This document shows, piece by piece, positions 33,924 to 47,966 of a stretch of 64,000 nucleotides of DNA. Positions within the stretch are counted from its first letter, which is position 1; each line of letters begins with the position of its first letter. Location of the stretch: IMG/VR virus record IMGVR_UViG_3300017971_000228, positions 34,107 through 98,106 of that record; one strand, given 5' to 3'. The stretch is from a virus. Position numbers and translations under genes: made by a program. Under the pieces are notes generated by a model. The model did not search any database, had not been told where the DNA came from, and saw nothing but the letters and a program-made list of their open reading frames with translations.

Positions 33924-34157
33924 GTGATTACGCTGGAGATGTCGGAAGAGACGGCTACGGTTCTGGCCTATTGCATCGGTACGGCGTTGAGCCTGCATGT
34001 GGGCGCAGCCATAGACTATCTGGCGGCTGGAGGGGTAACGTCGGAGGGATTGGACAGTCTCTGTCGGGTGTATGAAGAGATCGTGGAGTGTGTGACGGGC
34101 TGTAGCGTCTATCCGAGTGGTGAGGACGTGGCTGACTGGCTAGGAGGCCAGGGATGA
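33924..34157 (+). CDS. Hypothetical protein, paralog of the next gene
   Basis: ITLEMSE..A / YPS.EDV..WL.GQ shared with 34154..34384. Confidence 0.55.
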   Translation: MITLEMSEETATVLAYCIGTALSLHVGAAIDYLAAGGVTSEGLDSLCRVYEEIVECVTGCSVYPSGEDVADWLGGQG

Positions 34158-36028: not shown

Positions 36029-36850
36029 GTGACGGATCTTTTGGTGCACCAAAACTCTGGGCGCCAACTCTACGCCACCAGCATCTGCCAAAACACTCCC
36101 GAGCACGTCCAGATTATCATTCACCAGCTGATAGACGGGCCTATGCCGGACATCGAAGAAGTGTCCTCCACCATCGGGGAACTGCTTAGGGCGGATGCTG
36201 ACATCAAGTGGGGTGTAGGGGACTTGCTGGTAGCGTTGCATCGTCGGGCTGGCGGTAGCAGGGATGACTGGGTGCAATACGTCAAGCAGGTCGCGTCCAT
36301 GATTCCCAACGTCGGCTATCACACACTCTGGACGTACTACGCTACGGCACTGATGTTCCCGGAAGAGAAGCGGATCGAGGACAAGGCGTTTAGCTGGCAT
36401 GTAGAGCTCATGCACCTTGCTGGCCACCAGTTGCCAAGGTCTGGGTGGTCCCAGGAAGAGCACGAAGCGGAACGCATAGAGAAGGTGGCGGAATTGCTGG
36501 AGACGGCGGCCGAAGAGGACTGGTCGCTGTCGAGGGTAAGGCAGGAACGGTTGGAGAGCCCGAGGGATGGGCTGGAGTTCACGGTTCCGATACCCGGATG
36601 GGTGGATGTAGTGGACTCGGAGACAGGTGAAGCTGAGCAGTTCTTAGTCTTTGGCAAGGATGCGCCAGTGAAAGCCGCGAAGTATGTCCTGGGGTGCCTA
36701 CGGATACAGTCGGGAAGGCATGAACCTATTGAGATAAGGGAGAGTCATGGTTGTCTGTGGAGTGACGGTAACGTTGTGGCATATCTTGGGACTGGCAAGC
36801 TGGCCCAGCGGGCGTGGCAGAAGGTGAAGGGGAAGGTGGTGGGTGGGTAA
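36029..36850 (+). CDS. LmbU-like DNA-binding protein
   Basis: W.VGD, F....R....FSWH.E, A..E.WS...R pattern. Confidence 0.5.
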   Translation: MTDLLVHQNSGRQLYATSICQNTPEHVQIIIHQLIDGPMPDIEEVSSTIGELLRADADIKWGVGDLLVALHRRAGGSRDDWVQYVKQVASMIPNVGYHTLWTYYATALMFPEEKRIEDKAFSWHVELMHLAGHQLPRSGWSQEEHEAERIEKVAELLETAAEEDWSLSRVRQERLESPRDGLEFTVPIPGWVDVVDSETGEAEQFLVFGKDAPVKAAKYVLGCLRIQSGRHEPIEIRESHGCLWSDGNVVAYLGTGKLAQRAWQKVKGKVVGG

Positions 36851-38012
36851 CCTGGGGCCATTCGAGCTAGATACCATCGTCGTGGGCGATTGTCTGGATG
36901 TGATGAAGCAGATGCCGGACAACTGTATTGACACCATTATCACCGATCCACCATACGGATTGGAGTTCCTGGACACTGATTGGGACAGCGGAGTGCCTGG
37001 GGTAGCTCACTGGCGGGTCGCTCTTCGAGTTGTCAAACCAGGAGCAATTCTTATGGCCTTCGGAGGAACTCGGGCTCACCACCGTTTGATGTGTGCCATC
37101 GAGGATGCAGGGTGGGAGATCAGAGACTGTATGATGTGGCTTTACGCTCAAGGCACCCCAAAAAGCCACAATATCAGTAAGGCGATAGACAAGGTGGCGC
37201 ATAACGGTGCGGGTGCCGCCACGTCTTGGGTCGGATGGGGGACTGCACTGAAACCTGCTTGGGAACCCATCATAGTAGCGATGAAGCCGAGAGAGGGGAC
37301 GTATGCGAACAATGCATTGAAGTGGGGTGTAGCGGGGCTGTGGATCGATGGGGGCAGGGTTGGTGGGGCTGATGGTCGTTGGCCACCAAACTTACTGCTG
37401 ACCCATGACGAAGAATGTGAAACGGCCATGGGCAGCAGCTCAGAGACTGTTACCTATTCGAGGTGTTGTCCTGGATGTCCAGTTCGCATACTGAGTGAAC
37501 AGAGCGGAGAGAGGCCGAGCGCTGGGTACTATCGTGATCCGGCAGGGGATTGTCAACCACGAAGAGGGGCGAAGGATATGTTCGGTCATCGCTATCGAAA
37601 GGATGCACGAAGAAGGACGGCGCGATATAGCGGAGATACTGGGACCGCCGCTCGGTTCTTCTACCAGCCTAAATCATCATTCTTAGAACGGGAAGAGGGT
37701 CTTATCGGCAAGTTGCCCTGTGTGGTTTGTGGGGGGCTAGACACAAAGACTCACGTTGGTTCGGAAGGCAGAGAAATCAACTGTCATAGAAACAACCATC
37801 CTACGGTAAAGCCTCTAGCGTTGATGGAGTACCTGTGCTGTCTCACAAGAACACCATCAGGGGGTATAGTAGCTGATCCCTTTGCTGGTAGTGGATCAAC
37901 GTTGCTGGCAGCAAAGAAGACGGGGCGCAGCTATTTCGGTTGTGATAACAATTCTAGGTACGTTAGGATCGCCAAGGCGCGCTTGTCTGCTGTGCAATTG
38001 GCCCTACTGTGA
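36843..38012 (+). CDS. DNA amino-methyltransferase #2
   Basis: TDPPY, FGGTR..HR...AIEDAGWEIRD, LKPAWEPI, HPTVKP, DPFAGSGST. Confidence 0.92.
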   Translation: MGNLGPFELDTIVVGDCLDVMKQMPDNCIDTIITDPPYGLEFLDTDWDSGVPGVAHWRVALRVVKPGAILMAFGGTRAHHRLMCAIEDAGWEIRDCMMWLYAQGTPKSHNISKAIDKVAHNGAGAATSWVGWGTALKPAWEPIIVAMKPREGTYANNALKWGVAGLWIDGGRVGGADGRWPPNLLLTHDEECETAMGSSSETVTYSRCCPGCPVRILSEQSGERPSAGYYRDPAGDCQPRRGAKDMFGHRYRKDARRRTARYSGDTGTAARFFYQPKSSFLEREEGLIGKLPCVVCGGLDTKTHVGSEGREINCHRNNHPTVKPLALMEYLCCLTRTPSGGIVADPFAGSGSTLLAAKKTGRSYFGCDNNSRYVRIAKARLSAVQLALL

Positions 38013-38244: not shown

Positions 38245-39050
38245 TAAGAGTGTTCCCGCGTCGAACGTCGTTGACGCCAAGTGATCCCTATGCTTTTATT
38301 GGTGATCCTCCCCTGTGGCGGCCAGAGGCAGATGAAGTGCATGTCTCGGTTGCTTTTACCTGGGACATTGAAGAGGGACAGCGGCTGAGGGGTGCCTGGG
38401 CAAACCACTATGAGATTGTCAAGATCGGTGGACCCGCTTTCGGTGGGAATGGCGACTTCATTCCTGGACGCTACGTCAAGCCCGGAGTGACGTTCACGAC
38501 TAGGGGTTGTCCGAACCACTGTCCTTGGTGTCTGGTGCCAGAGCGCGAAGGGGAGCTTAAGCTGCTGGACATCAAGCCTGGGTGGATCATACAGGACAAC
38601 AACCTATTAGCAGCACCGCGCAAGCACAAGGAGGAAGTACTGGCGATGCTAAAGGCCCAGAATCGTGCAGTTTCGTTTTCTGGGGGCTTAGACGCACGAT
38701 TGCTCGATTCATGGTTCGCAGATGAACTGCGGTCACTGAAGATTGGGCAGGTCTTTCTAGCAGCGGATACCGTGGGGCGATTGCAGTCAGTTGAGAAGGC
38801 CATTGACAGATTATCATTCCTGAACAAGTGGCAGATCCGAGTGTACACCATGATCGGATATGGTAGAGAGACTATGGCGGATACTGAGGCGCGGATGGAA
38901 GCAGTCTGGCAGATGGGCGGAACGCCTTTTGCCCAACTCTATCAGCCGCCCGACCAGTACCTGAACTATTCGCGTGAGTGGAAGGCACTGATGAGAACGT
39001 GGAGTCGTCCGGCGGCGATGGTGGCTAAGCATGGAGGATGGCATTCATGA
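38241..39050 (+). CDS. Radical SAM protein
   Basis: TTRGCPNHCPWC (CxxxCxxC), DNNLL, GLDARL. Confidence 0.85.
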   Translation: MIRVFPRRTSLTPSDPYAFIGDPPLWRPEADEVHVSVAFTWDIEEGQRLRGAWANHYEIVKIGGPAFGGNGDFIPGRYVKPGVTFTTRGCPNHCPWCLVPEREGELKLLDIKPGWIIQDNNLLAAPRKHKEEVLAMLKAQNRAVSFSGGLDARLLDSWFADELRSLKIGQVFLAADTVGRLQSVEKAIDRLSFLNKWQIRVYTMIGYGRETMADTEARMEAVWQMGGTPFAQLYQPPDQYLNYSREWKALMRTWSRPAAMVAKHGGWHS

Positions 39051-39529
39051 AGATTCTATCCGTAGACCTAGCCGCTCGCGCCTCCGGCTTCGCACTCTTC
39101 GACAACGGTGAACTCATCTCCCACGGTACGATTATCATTCCCAAGCTGGACTCGCACCACCAGTGGATGTGGGATCTGTACGAGGACTTCTGCGATAGCT
39201 TGCCCTGGGACGATGTGGAGCACGTGGTGGTGGAGTTCGACCAGAACATCGCGGCCTATTCCAAGATGAATGTCAAGAGCAAGCGGCGGATGTACTCGGC
39301 GATGGACGTGCTGATCCTGGCGAAGCATGCCATGTCGGATGCGGAACTGCATGAAGTCAAGCCTCGATCCTGGCAGAAGGCGATGCTGAGCGGATTCCCC
39401 GGCAGCACCAAGGACGCATCGGTAGCGGTGGCGCGGTCCATCTGGCCCTCGGAAGCGTGGACGGAGCATGATGCGGACGCGGCGTTGATGGGGGAGTGGT
39501 GGAGGAAGGATCGTCAGTGGGAGAGCTAG
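39047..39529 (+). CDS. RuvC-like Holliday junction resolvase
   Basis: ILSVD......G, VVVE, P.SWQK, HDADAA. Confidence 0.8.
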   Translation: MKILSVDLAARASGFALFDNGELISHGTIIIPKLDSHHQWMWDLYEDFCDSLPWDDVEHVVVEFDQNIAAYSKMNVKSKRRMYSAMDVLILAKHAMSDAELHEVKPRSWQKAMLSGFPGSTKDASVAVARSIWPSEAWTEHDADAALMGEWWRKDRQWES

Positions 39530-42500
39530 GGCCCTATGAACCCGACACCATAGTCCATGGCCATGTGCTGGAAGTGCTAAGACAGCTGCCGGACGAGAGT
39601 ATTCATTGCTGTATCACCTCACCTCCCTACTGGGGCCTACGCGCATACGGCACCCAGCTCCAGGTCTGGGGAGGGGATAGCGAGTGTCGGCATGTGTGGG
39701 GATTAGAGCAAGCGAACATCTGTCAGACCGCCGGTCTGACAGATAAGCAGATGACCAACAGGGGGAGCTATCATGGTGGAGGCACCAATAGTTTCTGTTC
39801 CCTCTGTGGTGCATGGCGTGGGGAGCTAGGACTTGAACCGTCGCCTGAACAGTTTGTTCAACACTTGGTGGAGATATTCAGGGAAGTGCGGCGGGTGTTG
39901 AGACAGGATGGGACGCTGTGGCTGAACCTCGGCCAGTCATACTGGGGTGGCAAAGGACAAAGCAATTATGCGTTCCAAGAACGGCGAGAGAGTCCATCCA
40001 TTGAAGGTAAACAGCACAACATAACCAGCATGGGGGAAACGCGACCGTCGGATGGTAGTCACGCTGTGTTCAAGCCTAAAGACCTCGTCCCCATCCCCTG
40101 GATGGTAGCGATGGCTCTTCAGCAAGATGGCTGGTGGTTGCGGTCATCCATCATCTGGTGTCTTGCTGGTGAGACTCCTCTACTATGTCGGGTTGACGGT
40201 CGGATCTGGCACGGCACCATTGAGGAGTTGCAGCGCCGATGGGCAGAGTGGCAGACAGTTGAAATGCCCACGATGGGCAAGGGCTACTCCAGGCACTGGG
40301 TCAAGGTTCGTTCTGTGGTGCAGACTGGAGTGCGTGAGGTGAAGCGCATAACTCTCACCAACGGTGCAGAGGTGCTGGCTACCGGCGACCACAAGTTTCC
40401 GGTCAGAAAGAGCACTCTGGCGGGGAGGACATTGAAGTGGATGAATGCGCCTGTCTCAGTACCAGTTAGCGATCTGAGTCCTGGAATGTACCTGTACCAG
40501 AACACACAAATTGAGTCTGGTCTCCCAGAAGGAACAGTACAGGACTACAAGAATGGATACTGGGTTGGCTTCTACTTAGCAGAAGGATATCGAGTAAGTA
40601 CGAATTATGAAACTCTCAGGTTGGCCTGCGGAACACAGGACCGAGAGATTATCAATCGGCTGATATCCTGGGGGATCCCCTTGACTGTAATTGAGAGAGA
40701 GGGGGAGCGACTAACTATCAACCTGCGCATAAGACATGGCGGGGCGGCGTGGAGGGATGTTATCCTATCTCATATAACAGGCCGAAGTGCTGCTACCAAG
40801 AAGCTTAAGCAGGACGTCTTCAACCGCAGTCTCTTATTCTTAGAAGGACTGTTGTATGGCTTTCTGGACGGGGATGGAACTTGGGATGAAGCGGGGCGTC
40901 GGTGGCGCGTCGGGATGACCGCTAAGAACAAGACCCTAGTGAATCAATTCGAGGCCATTTGCCGAATCCTGGGACTAGAGTTTCGGCGTGAGAGGATCAA
41001 GGATGTGGGGGCGTTTGGCAAGGTACATAAGGCGGTCAGATTCAACATCATCAATCTCGCAGCCAACTACCGAGGTAAGGGCAAGATCGTTGTAGAAGAT
41101 ACGGTTACTAGGAGAATCCGCAGCATTGATCCAGCAGGAAGTAGATCTGTTTACGACCTAGAACTAGAGCCGTTGTACGGTGGCGAAAGAGCGAATCAGT
41201 GGGTGCCATCTAGTGGTGAGACTTCGGATGCGAGGAAGGTTCCCTACAATCATCTCTACTTCCTTGGCAATGGCATCTGGACTCATAACTGCAAAGGATC
41301 ATCTTTCGCTACCCATCAAGCCGAGTGTCCTCACTGCAACCACAAGTTCGAGACACAGTACAGCGGATCATGTATGCCTGAGTCGGTGAAAGATCGCCCC
41401 ACTCAGAGCTACGAATACGTCTTCTTGCTGGCGAAGGACAAACGGTATTTCTATGACCAGGAAGCGGTAAGGGAACCGCACTCCCGCGACTGGTCGCGGG
41501 AGTCATGGGCACAGCAGGTCAACTATGGCACCAAGACACAGAGTTCGCTGGGGCAGCTACATGGGGGGAACAAGACAATAGCGGAGACATACAATCCTTC
41601 TGGCCGCAACTTGAGATCGGTTTGGACCATCAACCCCCATCCTTTCAATGACTGGATACAAACCGTCCGTCTGGTCCGTGTGGGACTGGATGGCGTTTCC
41701 GATGGCATGATGCACATAACGTCTCCAAGTTGTCCAGTTCATGGTTGTTTGGGTCGTCCAGATGATGGACGTGGAGAAGATGGTCAGAGCCACATATCAC
41801 GCACTGATGGTTGTCCCGACCCAGAGCCTGAGTCCTTGCTTGCTTATAGTTCCACACGTCCCTTGCTGCCGAAGCCGGGTTGTAGTTCGGGTTCGCAGGT
41901 CCACCAGTGTTCTCATGCTGCCATTGGCCATAGCAATCAAAACCACAGAACGGACCGCGCTCGGTTGACCAGTCCTTCATGTAGGCTTTGCGCTCAAAGC
42001 TCTTGCCGCATTGGCGACAAACAAGAGTTACTCGTTTGCGCTGTGCTTCATGAGAACATGCCCGACTGCAATACTTGGCCGGATGAGATGGGCGCTCGTT
42101 TACTGGATCGAATCCCTTACCACATTGTTGACAAGTCTTCATACTTGCCTCCTTCCTGTACTTGTGGATTCTATCACAAAGTTACCAAGGAGTCAAGTCA
42201 TTTCGCAACCTATCCCCCCGAACTCATCACCCCCATGATCCTTGCTGGCACTTCAGCCCGTGGGGTTTGTCCTAAGTGTGGGAGTCCGTGGGAGAGGGTG
42301 GTGAAGGGGACAGGCAATATGGTGCAACAACACTGGGCTCCTGGTACACAAGAAAAGATAGACACTGCCCAGGGTAAACACGGCAATAGCAGCGTATTCA
42401 ACACAGGGTACATCGAACAGCGGACTACTACTGGCTGGCAACCCACCTGTTCATGCGGCCACGAAGATACCGTGCCGGCTATCGTCTTGGACCCCTTCAT

Positions 42501-42627
42501 GGGCAGCGGTACGACAGCGATGGTCGCCCTGGAGAATCGTCGTCAGTTCCTGGGTATTGAACTGAATCCAGAGTATGTAGCGATGGCAGAGAACCGCATA
42601 GCGGCGGTGCAGCCGAGGATGCTATGA
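39517..42627 (+). CDS. DNA amino-methyltransferase #3 (SPPY type) carrying an intein and an in-frame insertion that encodes an antisense HNH
   Basis: TSPPYWGLR, KPKDL..IPW.VA.ALQ.DGW.LRS.IIW, MPESVKDRPT, RSVWTI, HFATYP, DPFMGSGTT. Confidence 0.9.
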   Translation: MGELGPYEPDTIVHGHVLEVLRQLPDESIHCCITSPPYWGLRAYGTQLQVWGGDSECRHVWGLEQANICQTAGLTDKQMTNRGSYHGGGTNSFCSLCGAWRGELGLEPSPEQFVQHLVEIFREVRRVLRQDGTLWLNLGQSYWGGKGQSNYAFQERRESPSIEGKQHNITSMGETRPSDGSHAVFKPKDLVPIPWMVAMALQQDGWWLRSSIIWCLAGETPLLCRVDGRIWHGTIEELQRRWAEWQTVEMPTMGKGYSRHWVKVRSVVQTGVREVKRITLTNGAEVLATGDHKFPVRKSTLAGRTLKWMNAPVSVPVSDLSPGMYLYQNTQIESGLPEGTVQDYKNGYWVGFYLAEGYRVSTNYETLRLACGTQDREIINRLISWGIPLTVIEREGERLTINLRIRHGGAAWRDVILSHITGRSAATKKLKQDVFNRSLLFLEGLLYGFLDGDGTWDEAGRRWRVGMTAKNKTLVNQFEAICRILGLEFRRERIKDVGAFGKVHKAVRFNIINLAANYRGKGKIVVEDTVTRRIRSIDPAGSRSVYDLELEPLYGGERANQWVPSSGETSDARKVPYNHLYFLGNGIWTHNCKGSSFATHQAECPHCNHKFETQYSGSCMPESVKDRPTQSYEYVFLLAKDKRYFYDQEAVREPHSRDWSRESWAQQVNYGTKTQSSLGQLHGGNKTIAETYNPSGRNLRSVWTINPHPFNDWIQTVRLVRVGLDGVSDGMMHITSPSCPVHGCLGRPDDGRGEDGQSHISRTDGCPDPEPESLLAYSSTRPLLPKPGCSSGSQVHQCSHAAIGHSNQNHRTDRARLTSPSCRLCAQSSCRIGDKQELLVCAVLHENMPDCNTWPDEMGARLLDRIPYHIVDKSSYLPPSCTCGFYHKVTKESSHFATYPPELITPMILAGTSARGVCPKCGSPWERVVKGTGNMVQQHWAPGTQEKIDTAQGKHGNSSVFNTGYIEQRTTTGWQPTCSCGHEDTVPAIVLDPFMGSGTTAMVALENRRQFLGIELNPEYVAMAENRIAAVQPRML
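40159..41289 (+). mobile_element. Intein with LAGLIDADG homing endonuclease (377 aa)
   Basis: Begins W|CLAGET; block B AT.DH.F; motifs VGFYLAEG and YGFLDGDG; VYDL; ends THN|C. Confidence 0.93.
41645..42142 (-). CDS. HNH endonuclease with N-terminal zinc fingers, nested antisense within MTase #3
   Basis: CxxC..YCSxxC and CxxC..FCxxxC fingers, NPNY, RD...C..CG...LHVHH.....N....NL.TLC.SCH...H; GGAGG SD 5 nt upstream. Confidence 0.9.
   Translation of the reverse strand: MKTCQQCGKGFDPVNERPSHPAKYCSRACSHEAQRKRVTLVCRQCGKSFERKAYMKDWSTERGPFCGFDCYGQWQHENTGGPANPNYNPASAARDVWNYKQARTQALGRDNHQCVICGSDHLLHVHHLDDPNNHELDNLETLCASCHRKRHPVPHGPDGRFVSSH
42168..42196 (-). promoter_or_regulatory. Sigma70 promoter for the nested HNH gene
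   Basis: TTGACT-17 bp-TAGAAT with a TG extension on the minus strand. Confidence 0.8.
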
Positions 42628-42751
42628 GATGGCAGCGACGTGACAAGAAGCTACGCCGGCGACGAAGCCGGATTATCAAACATGGCAAGGCGTTCGGTGA
42701 GATGGTAGCCAACGCCATACGCAAACGCAGAGACAAGACTCGGAGGAAGAA

Positions 42752-42988
42752 GTGAGACTCACGGTGTTTACGACGAATATGTGCCATGCCTGTCACGAGG
42801 CGATGGACTATCTGAGAGGACGCAATTATCAGTTTGCGGAGGTGGATATACGGAGCGCAGAAAGCATGTTACGGGTGCGCACAGGAGGGAAGAGGCCAAC
42901 AGCACCGACACTGTACGATTCAGATTCGGGAAGGCTAGTGGTGGGGTTCCAGCCTGATATGTATGACAGATTCCTGGACGGGAGATAG
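42752..42988 (+). CDS. NrdH/glutaredoxin-like protein
   Basis: FTT..CHAC, APTL, GF.PD. Confidence 0.8.
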   Translation: MRLTVFTTNMCHACHEAMDYLRGRNYQFAEVDIRSAESMLRVRTGGKRPTAPTLYDSDSGRLVVGFQPDMYDRFLDGR

Positions 42989-42990
42989 GC

Positions 42991-43641
42991 ATGCTGGCGA
43001 ACGAACGAGTGTATGAAGCGGTGGTGAATGCCGGGCGATGGGTGGATTCAGCTGAGATAGCCGATTTAGTAGGGGCCACGCGCGGGACCGCCCAGGCGCA
43101 CCTTACGAAGCTGGCCAGTCGGGGGAAGATCGTCAGGCACAAGGATGAGGTTGTCGGGGGCAACAAGTGGCAGTGGATGTATGTGTATGAGAACGGTAAG
43201 GACATCTGGAAGCTGCCCGGGGCCCCGCAGTGGACTTCAGTAAGGGAATCGGTCTATCAGACGCTATACGCTTCCGATCGGGAGATGACAACGAATGAGA
43301 TAGCCAAGTCTATGGGGAAGGGCAAGTCGTCCGTCCGGATGAGTCTGATACGGTTGCATATTCAAGGGCGAGTCAGGAAGCGGATGGAAGAACGGGTCGT
43401 CAGCGGTAGGCGGCGACAAGTGTTGGTCTGGGAAGCGGTGGAACCGAAGCCAGAAGAAGTACGGATAGATTATCATTCTCCATTGGATGACTGGTGGGCT
43501 GAAGGACAGGGAAGTGTCCGAGACGCGATAGAGCGCAACTGGGGCCGGTGGTGCGGGGTAGTAGGAGCGGGAAGCTATGCGAAAGGAGACTCGGATGCAG
43601 CGAAAGGAGGCGCGTCGAATGGTCCGGCTGGGGGCCTATGA
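42991..43641 (+). CDS. Tandem winged-helix DNA-binding protein
   Basis: Two EIA...G......L.KL...G repeats. Confidence 0.7.
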   Translation: MLANERVYEAVVNAGRWVDSAEIADLVGATRGTAQAHLTKLASRGKIVRHKDEVVGGNKWQWMYVYENGKDIWKLPGAPQWTSVRESVYQTLYASDREMTTNEIAKSMGKGKSSVRMSLIRLHIQGRVRKRMEERVVSGRRRQVLVWEAVEPKPEEVRIDYHSPLDDWWAEGQGSVRDAIERNWGRWCGVVGAGSYAKGDSDAAKGGASNGPAGGL

Positions 43642-46237: not shown

Positions 46238-46412
46238 GCCGTGGGTAGTTGGTTGGGTTGACGGTATGCCAAGGGATTTCCAAGAGGGAAGGTGAGTAGG
46301 GGGGTATGATACGACGCATCGGTTGGGGCTGGTTCCTAGCGCATTGTACGGTAGCAGTGCTGATGTGGGCGCTGATGATTAGCGGGGTGATGTATTGGGT
46401 AGAGCGGATACT

Positions 46413-47966
46413 GTGAGTTGGAAGGTGGAGTGTGCGGACGTATTGGACTGGGCGGAGCGGTACGATGGAAAGAAGTTCCACGCCCTCTTGTGTGATCCAC
46501 CTTATGAGCTTGGTTTCATGGGCAAGGATTGGGATCGGAGCGGGATAGCCTTCAACCCTGACACCTGGGCGGCTCTAGCAGAGCACTTGTATCCAGGGGC
46601 GTTTGGGATGGCGTTCGCCAGCAGTCGGGGCTGGCATAGGCTTGCGGTGGCGATAGAGGACGCGGGGCTTAGGATACACCCATCCATTTTCATGCTCGGA
46701 TGGAGTTATGGGAGCGGATTCCCCAAAGCGACCAACATATCGGGTTGGATTGACAAGAGTGCTGGACATCCACCAAGGGGACATCGGATAGCGGTAGCAT
46801 CTCGTTATCATCCCGATGGCACATTTGAACCCAATGGGGAGAATCTTCCCCCACATGAGTATAAGGAACCAATGGCAAGAGTCTGGCAGTCTCACCGTTA
46901 CGGATTGCAGGCGATGAAACCCGCCCTTGAGCCCATCATCGTCTTCCAAAAACCCTACCCCAAAGGCAAGAAGACGTGGGAGAGCATCGTGGAGACTGGA
47001 GCGGGGGCTTTGAATATAGACGGGGGGCGGATAGCGACTGATGAGAATTGGTCTTATCCGAACGGTCCAGGAGGCTGCAAGTCTAGCCAATTTCATTATC
47101 AAGGTCGAGCTACAAAACCAGCAGAGAGTCATTCTCAGGGCCGCTGGCCACCCAATTTCTGCCTCATTCATTCCCCAGAGTGCGAGCGGGTTGGGGAGAA
47201 GAAGATTGAGAGCAAGAGCAGGGCGACGGCTGGGGGTAGGCGTAAGGGTGGACAAGCCTACGGTGACTATAAGGGGTATGAGAATCCACCAGAGATCGGT
47301 TACGCCGACTCCGACGGCCTCGAAACCATCTCCGACTGGCGGTGTGTTCCTGAGTGTCCAGTGTATCGTCTTGGACTCCAAAGTGGGGAGAGGGCTGGGC
47401 CGTGGGGGAAGGAAAGTGAAAGTACTCGGGATACGAGCTGGTTCAGTGGAAGGACTGACAGCTATGGCAAACTCTATCGTGATACCGGTACTGCCGCCCG
47501 TTTCTTTCATCAATCCGACTGGAGCTATGAGATCGCTGAACGTCTAGCGATGACGGATCCGGTGAGGTACTGTGCGAAGGCGGGAAGGAAGGAGAGAGAT
47601 GCGGGGTTGGATGAATGGGAAGCCAAGATGCCAGGACCAGAAACATTGACGGCTGGAATTGAACGCAAGAACGCTAAGCGGCGGCCTGAGCGTAGGTCCA
47701 AGAACCCTATGCGCAACCCTCATCCTACTGTCAAACCCATCTCTCTAGCCAAATGGCTGGCTACGCTACTTCTACCGCCAGTCGAATACGCTCCCCGACG
47801 GATTCTCATTCCTTTTCTTGGAAGTGGCAGTGAAGCGATAGGTGCTGGCCTGGTAGGTTGGGAGTTTATCCTAGGTATTGAGATGGGCGCCGACACGGTA
47901 GAGATTGCTGAAGCGCGGTTGCGTCACTGGCTAGACAAGCCACGACAAGCGGAGATGGACTTGTGA
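46413..47966 (+). CDS. DNA amino-methyltransferase #4
   Basis: CDPPYELGFMGKDWD, AIEDAG, YGSGFPK, KPALEPI, HPTVKP, PFLGSGSE. Confidence 0.92.
   Translation: MSWKVECADVLDWAERYDGKKFHALLCDPPYELGFMGKDWDRSGIAFNPDTWAALAEHLYPGAFGMAFASSRGWHRLAVAIEDAGLRIHPSIFMLGWSYGSGFPKATNISGWIDKSAGHPPRGHRIAVASRYHPDGTFEPNGENLPPHEYKEPMARVWQSHRYGLQAMKPALEPIIVFQKPYPKGKKTWESIVETGAGALNIDGGRIATDENWSYPNGPGGCKSSQFHYQGRATKPAESHSQGRWPPNFCLIHSPECERVGEKKIESKSRATAGGRRKGGQAYGDYKGYENPPEIGYADSDGLETISDWRCVPECPVYRLGLQSGERAGPWGKESESTRDTSWFSGRTDSYGKLYRDTGTAARFFHQSDWSYEIAERLAMTDPVRYCAKAGRKERDAGLDEWEAKMPGPETLTAGIERKNAKRRPERRSKNPMRNPHPTVKPISLAKWLATLLLPPVEYAPRRILIPFLGSGSEAIGAGLVGWEFILGIEMGADTVEIAEARLRHWLDKPRQAEMDL

Follow-up and report, generated by a model that had tools for sequence, protein, structure and literature searches.

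The window analysed here is a stretch of 64,000 nucleotides (positions 34,107 to 98,106) of IMG/VR record IMGVR_UViG_3300017971_000228, a 98-kb viral contig with terminal repeats. An open reading frame (ORF) for a DNA methyltransferase (MTase) at 39496-42627 of the window has been invaded twice, by an intein and by an in-frame insert that holds an HNH homing endonuclease gene on its complementary strand. We propose that this insert is a minimal mobile HNH cassette, which lies backwards in a conserved loop of the MTase, is not spliced, is read through and is closed by a stem and a zinc clasp. The probability of this reading is estimated to be about 0.62. The genes and signals of the locus are the following, in window coordinates.

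39496-42627, plus strand: ORF of a beta-class N4/N6 DNA methyltransferase, 1043 amino acids (PF01555, E-value 3e-32)
40159-41289, plus strand: LAGLIDADG intein, residues 222-598, CLAGET...THN followed by Cys599, recognised from the sequence
41647-42198, no strand assigned: in-frame insert of about 182 codons (about 550 nt) between PF(ND) and HFATYP, with boundaries ambiguous by about 6 nt
41645-42142, minus strand: HNH homing endonuclease ORF, 165 amino acids (PF01844, 23.3 bits against a cut-off of 21.4)
42148-42153, minus strand: Shine-Dalgarno (SD) sequence AGGAGG, 5 nt before the ATG of the HNH ORF (42142); Pro-Pro in the MTase frame
42168-42173, minus strand: -10 box TAGAAT with an upstream TG; (G)FY in the MTase frame
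42191-42196, minus strand: -35 box TTGACT with a 17-nt spacer; E-S-S just before HFA in the MTase frame

The MTase has the Rossmann-type MTase fold and the motif order of the beta class in PF01555, with motif IV (SPPY) near the N-terminus and motif I (FxGxG, here DPFMGSGTT) near the C-terminus. In the window protein, the insert is flanked by ...SVWTINPHPF(ND) on the left and by HFATYPPEL on the right. The insert-free homologues read SVWTIATQPFPEAHFATFP (PFPEAHFA) at this site, with three residues where the insert sits. The W-to-H spacing across the site is invariantly 13 in the insert-free homologues but 194-210 in the insert-bearing ones. Therefore, the insert comprises about 182 codons. It starts at about Trp720 and finishes with ...KESS before the His. 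Translation of 41635-42216 on the plus strand, which contains PHPFNDWIQTVRLVRVGLDGVSDGMMHITSPSCPVHG and SSYLPPSCTCGFYHKVTKESSHFATYP, confirmed the strings that an initial annotation of the locus had read at the insert ends, namely WIQTVRLVRV, HITSPSCPVH and PPSCTCGFYHKVT. With the phase counted from 39496, the first string occupies 41653-41682 and the second 41713-41742, its candidate ligand codons being 41731-41733 for Cys and 41740-41742 for His. The third one occupies 42148-42186, with Cys codons at 42157-42159 and 42163-42165. On the minus strand, the HNH protein is composed of two CxxC...C..C zinc fingers followed by the HNH motif, of which HH, N and C..CH are invariant. Its TGA stop overlaps the host codons of Phe717 and Asn718 at the left junction. 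Its promoter (TTGACT-17-TAGAAT) is sigma70-like, and a comparable promoter-like element is found in most of the relatives. As far as its sequence can be read, the minus strand of the insert is a complete minimal HNH expression cassette with nothing left over.

Relatives were ascertained with the HNH protein, not with the methylase, as a query in public viral, metagenome and genome collections. Four close loci were found in the viral collection, 34 in the metagenomes and 2 in the genomes, both of the latter from one Solirubrobacterales metagenome-assembled genome (MAG). At all of the HNH-found loci that span the site, the HNH gene lies antisense inside a methylase ORF that remains open. The chance of such an open frame was estimated by permuting synonymous codons within each of 29 non-redundant HNH-ascertained genes. 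The MTase frame is free of stops in 28 of the 29 loci, the exception being L083 with a frameshifted HNH gene, and the other two antisense frames contain 1-17 stops. The probability of an open frame under the permutation ranged from 0 to 0.28 with a median of about 0.02. The product of these probabilities is about 1e-52 and the combined p-value by Fisher's method is about 2e-24, for loci that are not fully independent. HNH dipeptides of the type F+[IMTNK], which force a stop in the host frame whatever codons are used, were observed 0 times against about 29 expected. On this count of codons and dipeptides, the open MTase frame across the insert is selected beyond chance, and the amino acid sequence of the HNH protein itself is shaped by the need for an open host frame. 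The host-frame segments that are relevant to the proposed clasp are given below; the confidence values (pLDDT, predicted local distance difference test) are those of AlphaFold2 (AF2).

41731-41742, plus strand: CPVH knuckle (Cys746 and His749, then Gly), antisense to HELDN of the HNH protein, pLDDT 87-91
42157-42165, plus strand: CxC (Cys888-Thr-Cys890), outside the HNH ORF, between the -10 box and the SD sequence of the other strand
41656-41682, plus strand: predicted N-side stem strand IQTVRLVRV, residues 721-729, antisense to the C-terminal tail of the HNH protein, AF2 pLDDT 83
42166-42195, plus strand: predicted C-side stem strand GFYHKVTKES, residues 891-900, running into the HFATYP helix, AF2 pLDDT 86
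41746-42135, plus strand: loop of residues 751-880, poorly conserved, variable among loci and predicted to be disordered, pLDDT 28-53

The initial annotation had suggested that CxxH and CxC could bind zinc jointly, and had looked to their conservation across homologous inserts. Both motifs are indeed conserved. CxxH, usually as CPxHG, is present in 54 of 56 non-redundant insert-bearing methylases and CxC in 55 of 56, including those of a second subfamily, and this is above the level imposed by the HNH gene. Some conservation of HITSPSCPVH comes free because it lies opposite the HNH motif H-E-L-D-N-L-E-T-L-C, and ITSP partly mirrors DNLET. The host-frame Cys needs an Asp or Gly codon of the HNH gene that ends in C (GAC/GGC), which was found in 28 of 28 cases, with GAT and GAC equally frequent at the other Asp codons (111 : 111). 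The host-frame His needs CAT in the HNH gene, found in 27 of 28 (other His codons, CAT 151 : CAC 123). The host-frame Pro needs G at the third position, which is kept in 27 of 28 though the HNH residue encoded there can be L, Q, P, T or M. The synonymous sites adjoining these determining positions vary freely. In a resampling with HNH codons drawn from the usage of each gene itself, 0 of 1000 trials conserved the two strand Val (V.V) or S, P, C, P, V and H as strongly as observed, and the intervening GLDGVSDG loop was conserved as by chance. Judged by these codon statistics, the Cys, Pro, His and Val residues are selected in the host frame.

The CxC codons wobble between TGT and TGC (21:6 and 13:14), the middle residue is free and Trp (TGG) is never seen. 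The motif overlaps the transcription-start region of the HNH gene in subfamily 1 and the -35 box in subfamily 2, and its position in the protein is kept. Therefore, the constraint on CxC appears to act at the level of the protein rather than of the promoter. A transcription-start or operator signal of the HNH gene was considered as an origin of CxC and rejected as the main cause, since the overlaps differ between the two subfamilies. The remainder of the closing string in the initial annotation fared otherwise than CxC. F/Y-Y arises from the complement of the -10 box, and the K-[TS]-S that precedes HFA from that of the -35 box. The codon ahead of F/Y has A in its third position regardless of the amino acid encoded, which is a nucleotide-level signature. 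As both motifs mirror promoter boxes, their conservation is not creditable to the methylase frame.

CPxHG is a classic zinc-knuckle turn in which His replaces the second Cys. The four Cys/His residues of the insert form two pairs that are kept across the family, as in a Cys3His zinc site. The sole replacement of the His with CxC kept is a Cys (L080, CPIC), in one sequence only. The sole protein with Tyr instead of His (P0027, CPVY), again one sequence only, also lacks CxC. This ligand swap and this co-loss are suggestive of the behaviour of a metal site. Considering the type of the motif together with the swap and the co-loss, Cys746, His749, Cys888 and Cys890 most likely form a Cys3His structural zinc site.

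Structure prediction with AF2 was carried out for the window protein and for P0008, an intein-free homologue that is 42% identical across the insert (122-row alignment). In the model of the window protein, the pLDDT values are 83-91 over residues 721-750, with an additional short strand at 739-741, and 74-86 over 881-900. They are about 28-40 across most of 751-880. The confidence over the intein is low because the alignment used (A3) holds no intein relatives. The model of P0008 contains strands at residues 247-255 and 417-426, with pLDDT values of 86-90 around the knuckle and CxC and below 50 for 286-408. Its core matches the solved beta-class MTases M.BceJIV, CcrM and M.PvuII, with a TMt of about 0.77. 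All 39 insert-bearing proteins of alignment A2 share the SPPY and D.F.G catalytic motifs without variation. When the insert ends (residues 714-756 and 874-912) were modelled as separate chains with Zn, a score of 0.04 was obtained and the fold of the partner was uncertain, an outcome that bears on the clasp in neither direction. A sequence search of the PDB with the 37-residue peptide of stem and knuckle gave spurious low-complexity matches only. In summary, the models predict two strands of paired length, a confident knuckle and a loop of about 130 disordered residues, and they leave the beta-class MTase core intact. The two-stranded stem, the disordered loop and the intact fold, which the initial annotation had expected from a model of the intein-free MTase, were all predicted for P0008. 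Of its zinc clasp and beta-stem, the stem, the extrusion and the motif conservation held up, and zinc binding by the insert is plausible from the motifs.

The distribution of the insert was analysed on a FastTree phylogeny of the methylase core with the insert columns removed. Of the best 120 proteins from a query with a methylase, about 40 carry the insert and about 80 do not, and the insert-free ones form the majority (82/121) of the core-tree set. The presence of the insert requires at least 14 changes on this tree, of which at least 5 are forced by well-supported branches. L002 with the insert and P0001 without it are well-supported sisters. Such a patchy distribution is as expected for a homing element. 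In GenBank phage searches, no match was found to the DNA (blastn) or to the HNH protein (tblastn). The second subfamily has an HNH protein of about 40% identity and an insert of about 240 amino acids, and SPDCPIHG and CxC are both kept. The distant HNH loci L005-L076 were considered as free-standing controls and rejected. These small HNH genes are unrelated, have stops in every antisense frame and differ too much to be usable as a matched control.

Several of the relatives deserve description. L114 and L115, two contigs of the Solirubrobacterales MAG, carry the antisense HNH gene in a methylase twice, adjoining a C5-cytosine methylase. They are probably prophages and give a hint of the host range of this element family. 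Two loci look damaged, L083 with a frameshifted HNH C-terminus and L110 with an HNH protein truncated before C..CH. Their MTase frames are open with C..H and CxC still there, as expected if the insert outlives its nuclease. In L001, the MTase ORF (L001:3522-5807) has acquired a second, unrelated antisense HNH gene (189 aa, L001:4898-5467, plus strand of the locus) in addition to the one of the family. It lies between LNLGSSYASG and KQKDLVPIPW, and its host frame is stop-free with a probability of 0.003 under the synonymous shuffle. The host-frame ends of this second insert are Cys-rich (…QCDCLAGHG… and …GRCGFCWCS…), a pattern that hints at a similar clasp.

The following mechanism is proposed. 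The HNH endonuclease would be made from its own antisense promoter and would cut the conserved PF...HFATFP coding site of alleles that lack the insert, in a relative that is co-infecting or resident. The cassette would be copied in when the cut allele is repaired. The MTase would be translated straight across the complementary strand of the insert, which would be kept stop-free by selection. In the protein, IQTVRLVRV and GFYHKVTKES from the two insert ends would pair as an antiparallel beta-stem. The CPxHG knuckle (Cys746, His749) and CxC (Cys888, Cys890) would meet beside the stem as a Cys3His zinc site. This self-closing adapter would bring the chain back to its exit point in the fold (PF...HFATYP). 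About 130 residues, a mere mirror image of the HNH gene, would be extruded as a disordered loop, and the catalytic core would stay intact. On this proposal, the invaded allele would survive because the complementary strand has no stops in the host frame and codes for the self-closing stem and clasp. With the read-through loop held by the stem and the Cys/His cluster, neither an intron nor an intein would therefore be needed. We infer zinc binding, retained methylase activity and homing through the cutting of insert-free alleles. The wider view, that these loci represent dual-coded mobile elements with a homing nuclease on one strand and a host-frame self-closing adapter (beta-stem and Cys3His clasp) on the other, is somewhat favoured.

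Some points weigh against the proposed mechanism, and other explanations must be considered. The loci are related by descent, so the p-values of the open-frame test overstate the significance. The conserved HNH tail is a confounder for the N-side strand, as are the promoter boxes (-10 and -35) of the HNH gene for the C-side strand and for the residues that precede HFA. The ligand swap and the co-loss come from one sequence each, and we infer the proximity of the four ligands solely from the strand register and the confidence of the model. The insert might be read through without any clasp, as a disordered surface loop whose Cys/His motifs and strands are passive mirror images and bind no metal. 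ITSP.CP.H does lie opposite DNLET of the HNH protein, and FY and K[TS]S face the -10 and -35 boxes. A precedent is the ShiLan domain or 'hidden HNH', an insertion in actinobacteriophage DNA methylases (Gosselin et al. 2023, PMC9957025; Arsenault, Gosselin & Gogarten 2025, PMC11855218), which is thought to be tolerated as a loop and for which no clasp was invoked (PMC11855218). A passive loop is nevertheless considered unlikely. It leaves the fixation of HNH synonymous sites exactly at the host-frame Cys, Pro and His positions, with varying neighbours, unaccounted for, as well as the CxC codons, which wobble but never become Trp and keep their protein position while shifting against the promoter. 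The confidence of AF2 in the knuckle and stem region also disagrees with it. Another idea, to which we give a low probability, is that the Cys/His cluster and the stem are real but serve as a DNA-contacting part, a regulatory metal or redox module, or a disulfide staple that alters the specificity or control of the methylase. The evidence demonstrates selection in the host frame, not its purpose, and the insert adjoins the HFATFP motif of the cofactor/target pocket. The insert-free relatives, however, do with three residues here and form the majority, the patchy distribution fits a parasite better than a recruited domain, and disulfides are disfavoured in the cytoplasm.

It was also considered that the invaded methylase is inactive, with its frame kept open for another purpose such as avoiding polarity or premature termination on downstream genes. 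Phages can often dispense with methylases (PMC11855218). This is very improbable in view of the invariant SPPY and D.F.G motifs (39/39), of selection that acts on specific residues beyond the avoidance of stops, and of the intein that the window gene retains with intact splice-junction residues. Finally, the insert might be removed, either as an unrecognised RNA-level intron or by unorthodox protein splicing or cleavage through the conserved Cys. The site is highly conserved, as are those of introns and inteins, and conserved Cys residues lie near both ends. Removal is scarcely credible all the same. No Rfam family was matched at E<=1 over 39000-43500 on either strand with permissive thresholds, and the reading of the insert as a group I or group II intron, with a ribozyme core recognisable by covariance model, was rejected on this ground. 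An intron would also need no open host frame with selected residues. The insert junctions have neither an N-terminal Cys/Ser nor a C-terminal His-Asn followed by Cys/Ser/Thr, there are no intein blocks, and the Cys residues are 27 and 12-14 residues inside the junctions. Pfam detects just the other, genuine intein of the gene. Read-through with a stem and a clasp is retained as the preferred reading.

The genuine intein is a separate and earlier invasion of the MTase gene than the HNH insert. Its profile matches to Intein_splicing and LAGLIDADG_3 are both under the Pfam cut-offs, and the signal is confined to residues 266-558. The extein 3' of the THN|C junction (window 41290-41370, residues 599-625) has about 27 additional residues, CKGSSFATHQAECPHCNHKFETQYSGS, with a CPHC knuckle, whereas the homologues have just xKPNP before MPESV at this site. 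Another additional segment of about 55 amino acids that bears Cys and His (…GGDSECRHVW…FCSLCGAWRGELGLEP) is found at window 39640-39830 (residues about 50-112), where most homologues pass from YG..GQ directly to LGLEP. The window MTase also has a zinc-ribbon-like insert (CPKC…CSC) after AGTS, which is common to many relatives.

To our knowledge, the persistence of homing endonucleases in essential or conserved genes has been ascribed only to hiding in self-splicing introns or inteins, or to the splitting of the host gene. The 2025 work on the ShiLan domain hinted at a route without splicing, and left open how the nuclease is expressed and how the host tolerates it (PMC11855218). For an antisense version, the window locus and its about 60 relatives speak to these two questions. 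The nuclease gene comes with a promoter and a ribosome-binding site of its own, and selection acts on individual residues of the host-frame translation, for a stem and a probable zinc clasp. The locus thus offers a clean and testable case of antisense dual coding with selection on both strands. If the proposal is true, it would be a third solution, beside introns and inteins, for invading a conserved gene without killing it, and the host frame would limit the choice of codons and amino acids in the parasite itself. The locus also points to a natural and portable "insertion socket" that loops large unstructured payloads out of an enzyme, which may be of interest for protein engineering.

Among the known systems, inteins with nested homing endonucleases are likewise in-frame with the host, inserted at a conserved site and mobilised by the nuclease. 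In contrast, they excise themselves and have the nuclease in the same frame, and the HNH insert is without splicing blocks and has its nuclease on the other strand. Friedrich et al. reportedly described in 2007 a free-standing homing endonuclease gene (HEG), mobE, that splits nrdA of Aeromonas phage Aeh1. This is also a HEG in a conserved gene without intron or intein, the function of the host surviving. There, the host protein consists of two pieces that reassemble, but the window MTase would be a single polypeptide with a closed loop. The proposed clasp resembles the CPxCG knuckles of the zinc-ribbon/rubredoxin type, in which two ligands come from a C-P-x-[C/H]-G turn and two more from an element on an adjacent beta-hairpin. 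It differs in having CxC instead of CxxC, one His ligand and halves about 140 residues apart. Antisense HEGs were found in full-text literature searches only inside group I introns of nuclear rDNA, and those at L2066 carry such genes (PMC9548176). Here too the HEG is opposite to the host gene. The L2066 introns are self-splicing ribozymes in rRNA genes, whereas the HNH insert has no ribozyme and is a read-through protein-coding frame.

The closest published relative is the ShiLan 'hidden HNH', an in-frame, stop-free and unspliced HNH insertion in a mycobacteriophage PF01555 methylase that is predicted to loop out (PMC9957025, PMC11855218). Both systems have an HNH gene in a PF01555 phage methylase, in another reading frame of an insert that occupies a conserved site, contains no host-frame stop and lacks any signature of an intron or intein. 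Both are disjunctly distributed among related methylases, both are predicted to loop out of the methylase, and in both the host gene is also invaded by an intein or a LAGLIDADG element. The same-strand layout of the ShiLan HNH gene was found in Mantra gp64, and the protein encoded there (L113:1036-1725) and the antisense HNH protein have in common an N-terminal C..CGK.F…YCSR.C zinc finger. The two types of hidden nuclease may, by this finger, be related despite their opposite orientation. A few related inserts and methylases were also noted. P0070 has an in-frame insert of 182 amino acids between ...AFALQ and TPGWWLRSD with a LAGLIDADG-like LAAVFDGEGTF and no obvious intein ends, which resembles the 'lone LAGLIDADG' of the ShiLan methylase. 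P0081 has a further insert of 166 amino acids between LLAKGQR and YFYD. The window itself encodes, at 36843-38012 and 46395-47966, two more methylases, both of the DPPY/GRWP type, a subfamily to which the hosts of the ShiLan domain belong. In these, Cys clusters bracket variable loops (…THDEEC…RCCPGCP… and …IHSPEC…RCVPECP…, respectively).

The differences from the ShiLan domain concern strand, signals, site and host. The ShiLan HNH gene is on the same strand as the methylase, in the +3 frame, with a GTG start 18 bp in, a TAAC end and no detectable ribosome-binding site. In contrast, the window HNH gene is on the opposite strand and has an ATG start, an SD sequence and a sigma70-like promoter. 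The ShiLan domain is situated between the duplicated EPVVVARKP of a DPPY/GRWP-type methylase (Mantra gp64), but the window insert lies between PF and HFATFP of an SPPY-type methylase, a different site in a different subfamily. Neither an antisense orientation nor a host-frame zinc site is mentioned in PMC11855218. For the window-type inserts, unlike the ShiLan domain, selection in the host frame is demonstrated, and a Cys3His clasp with a beta-stem is proposed.

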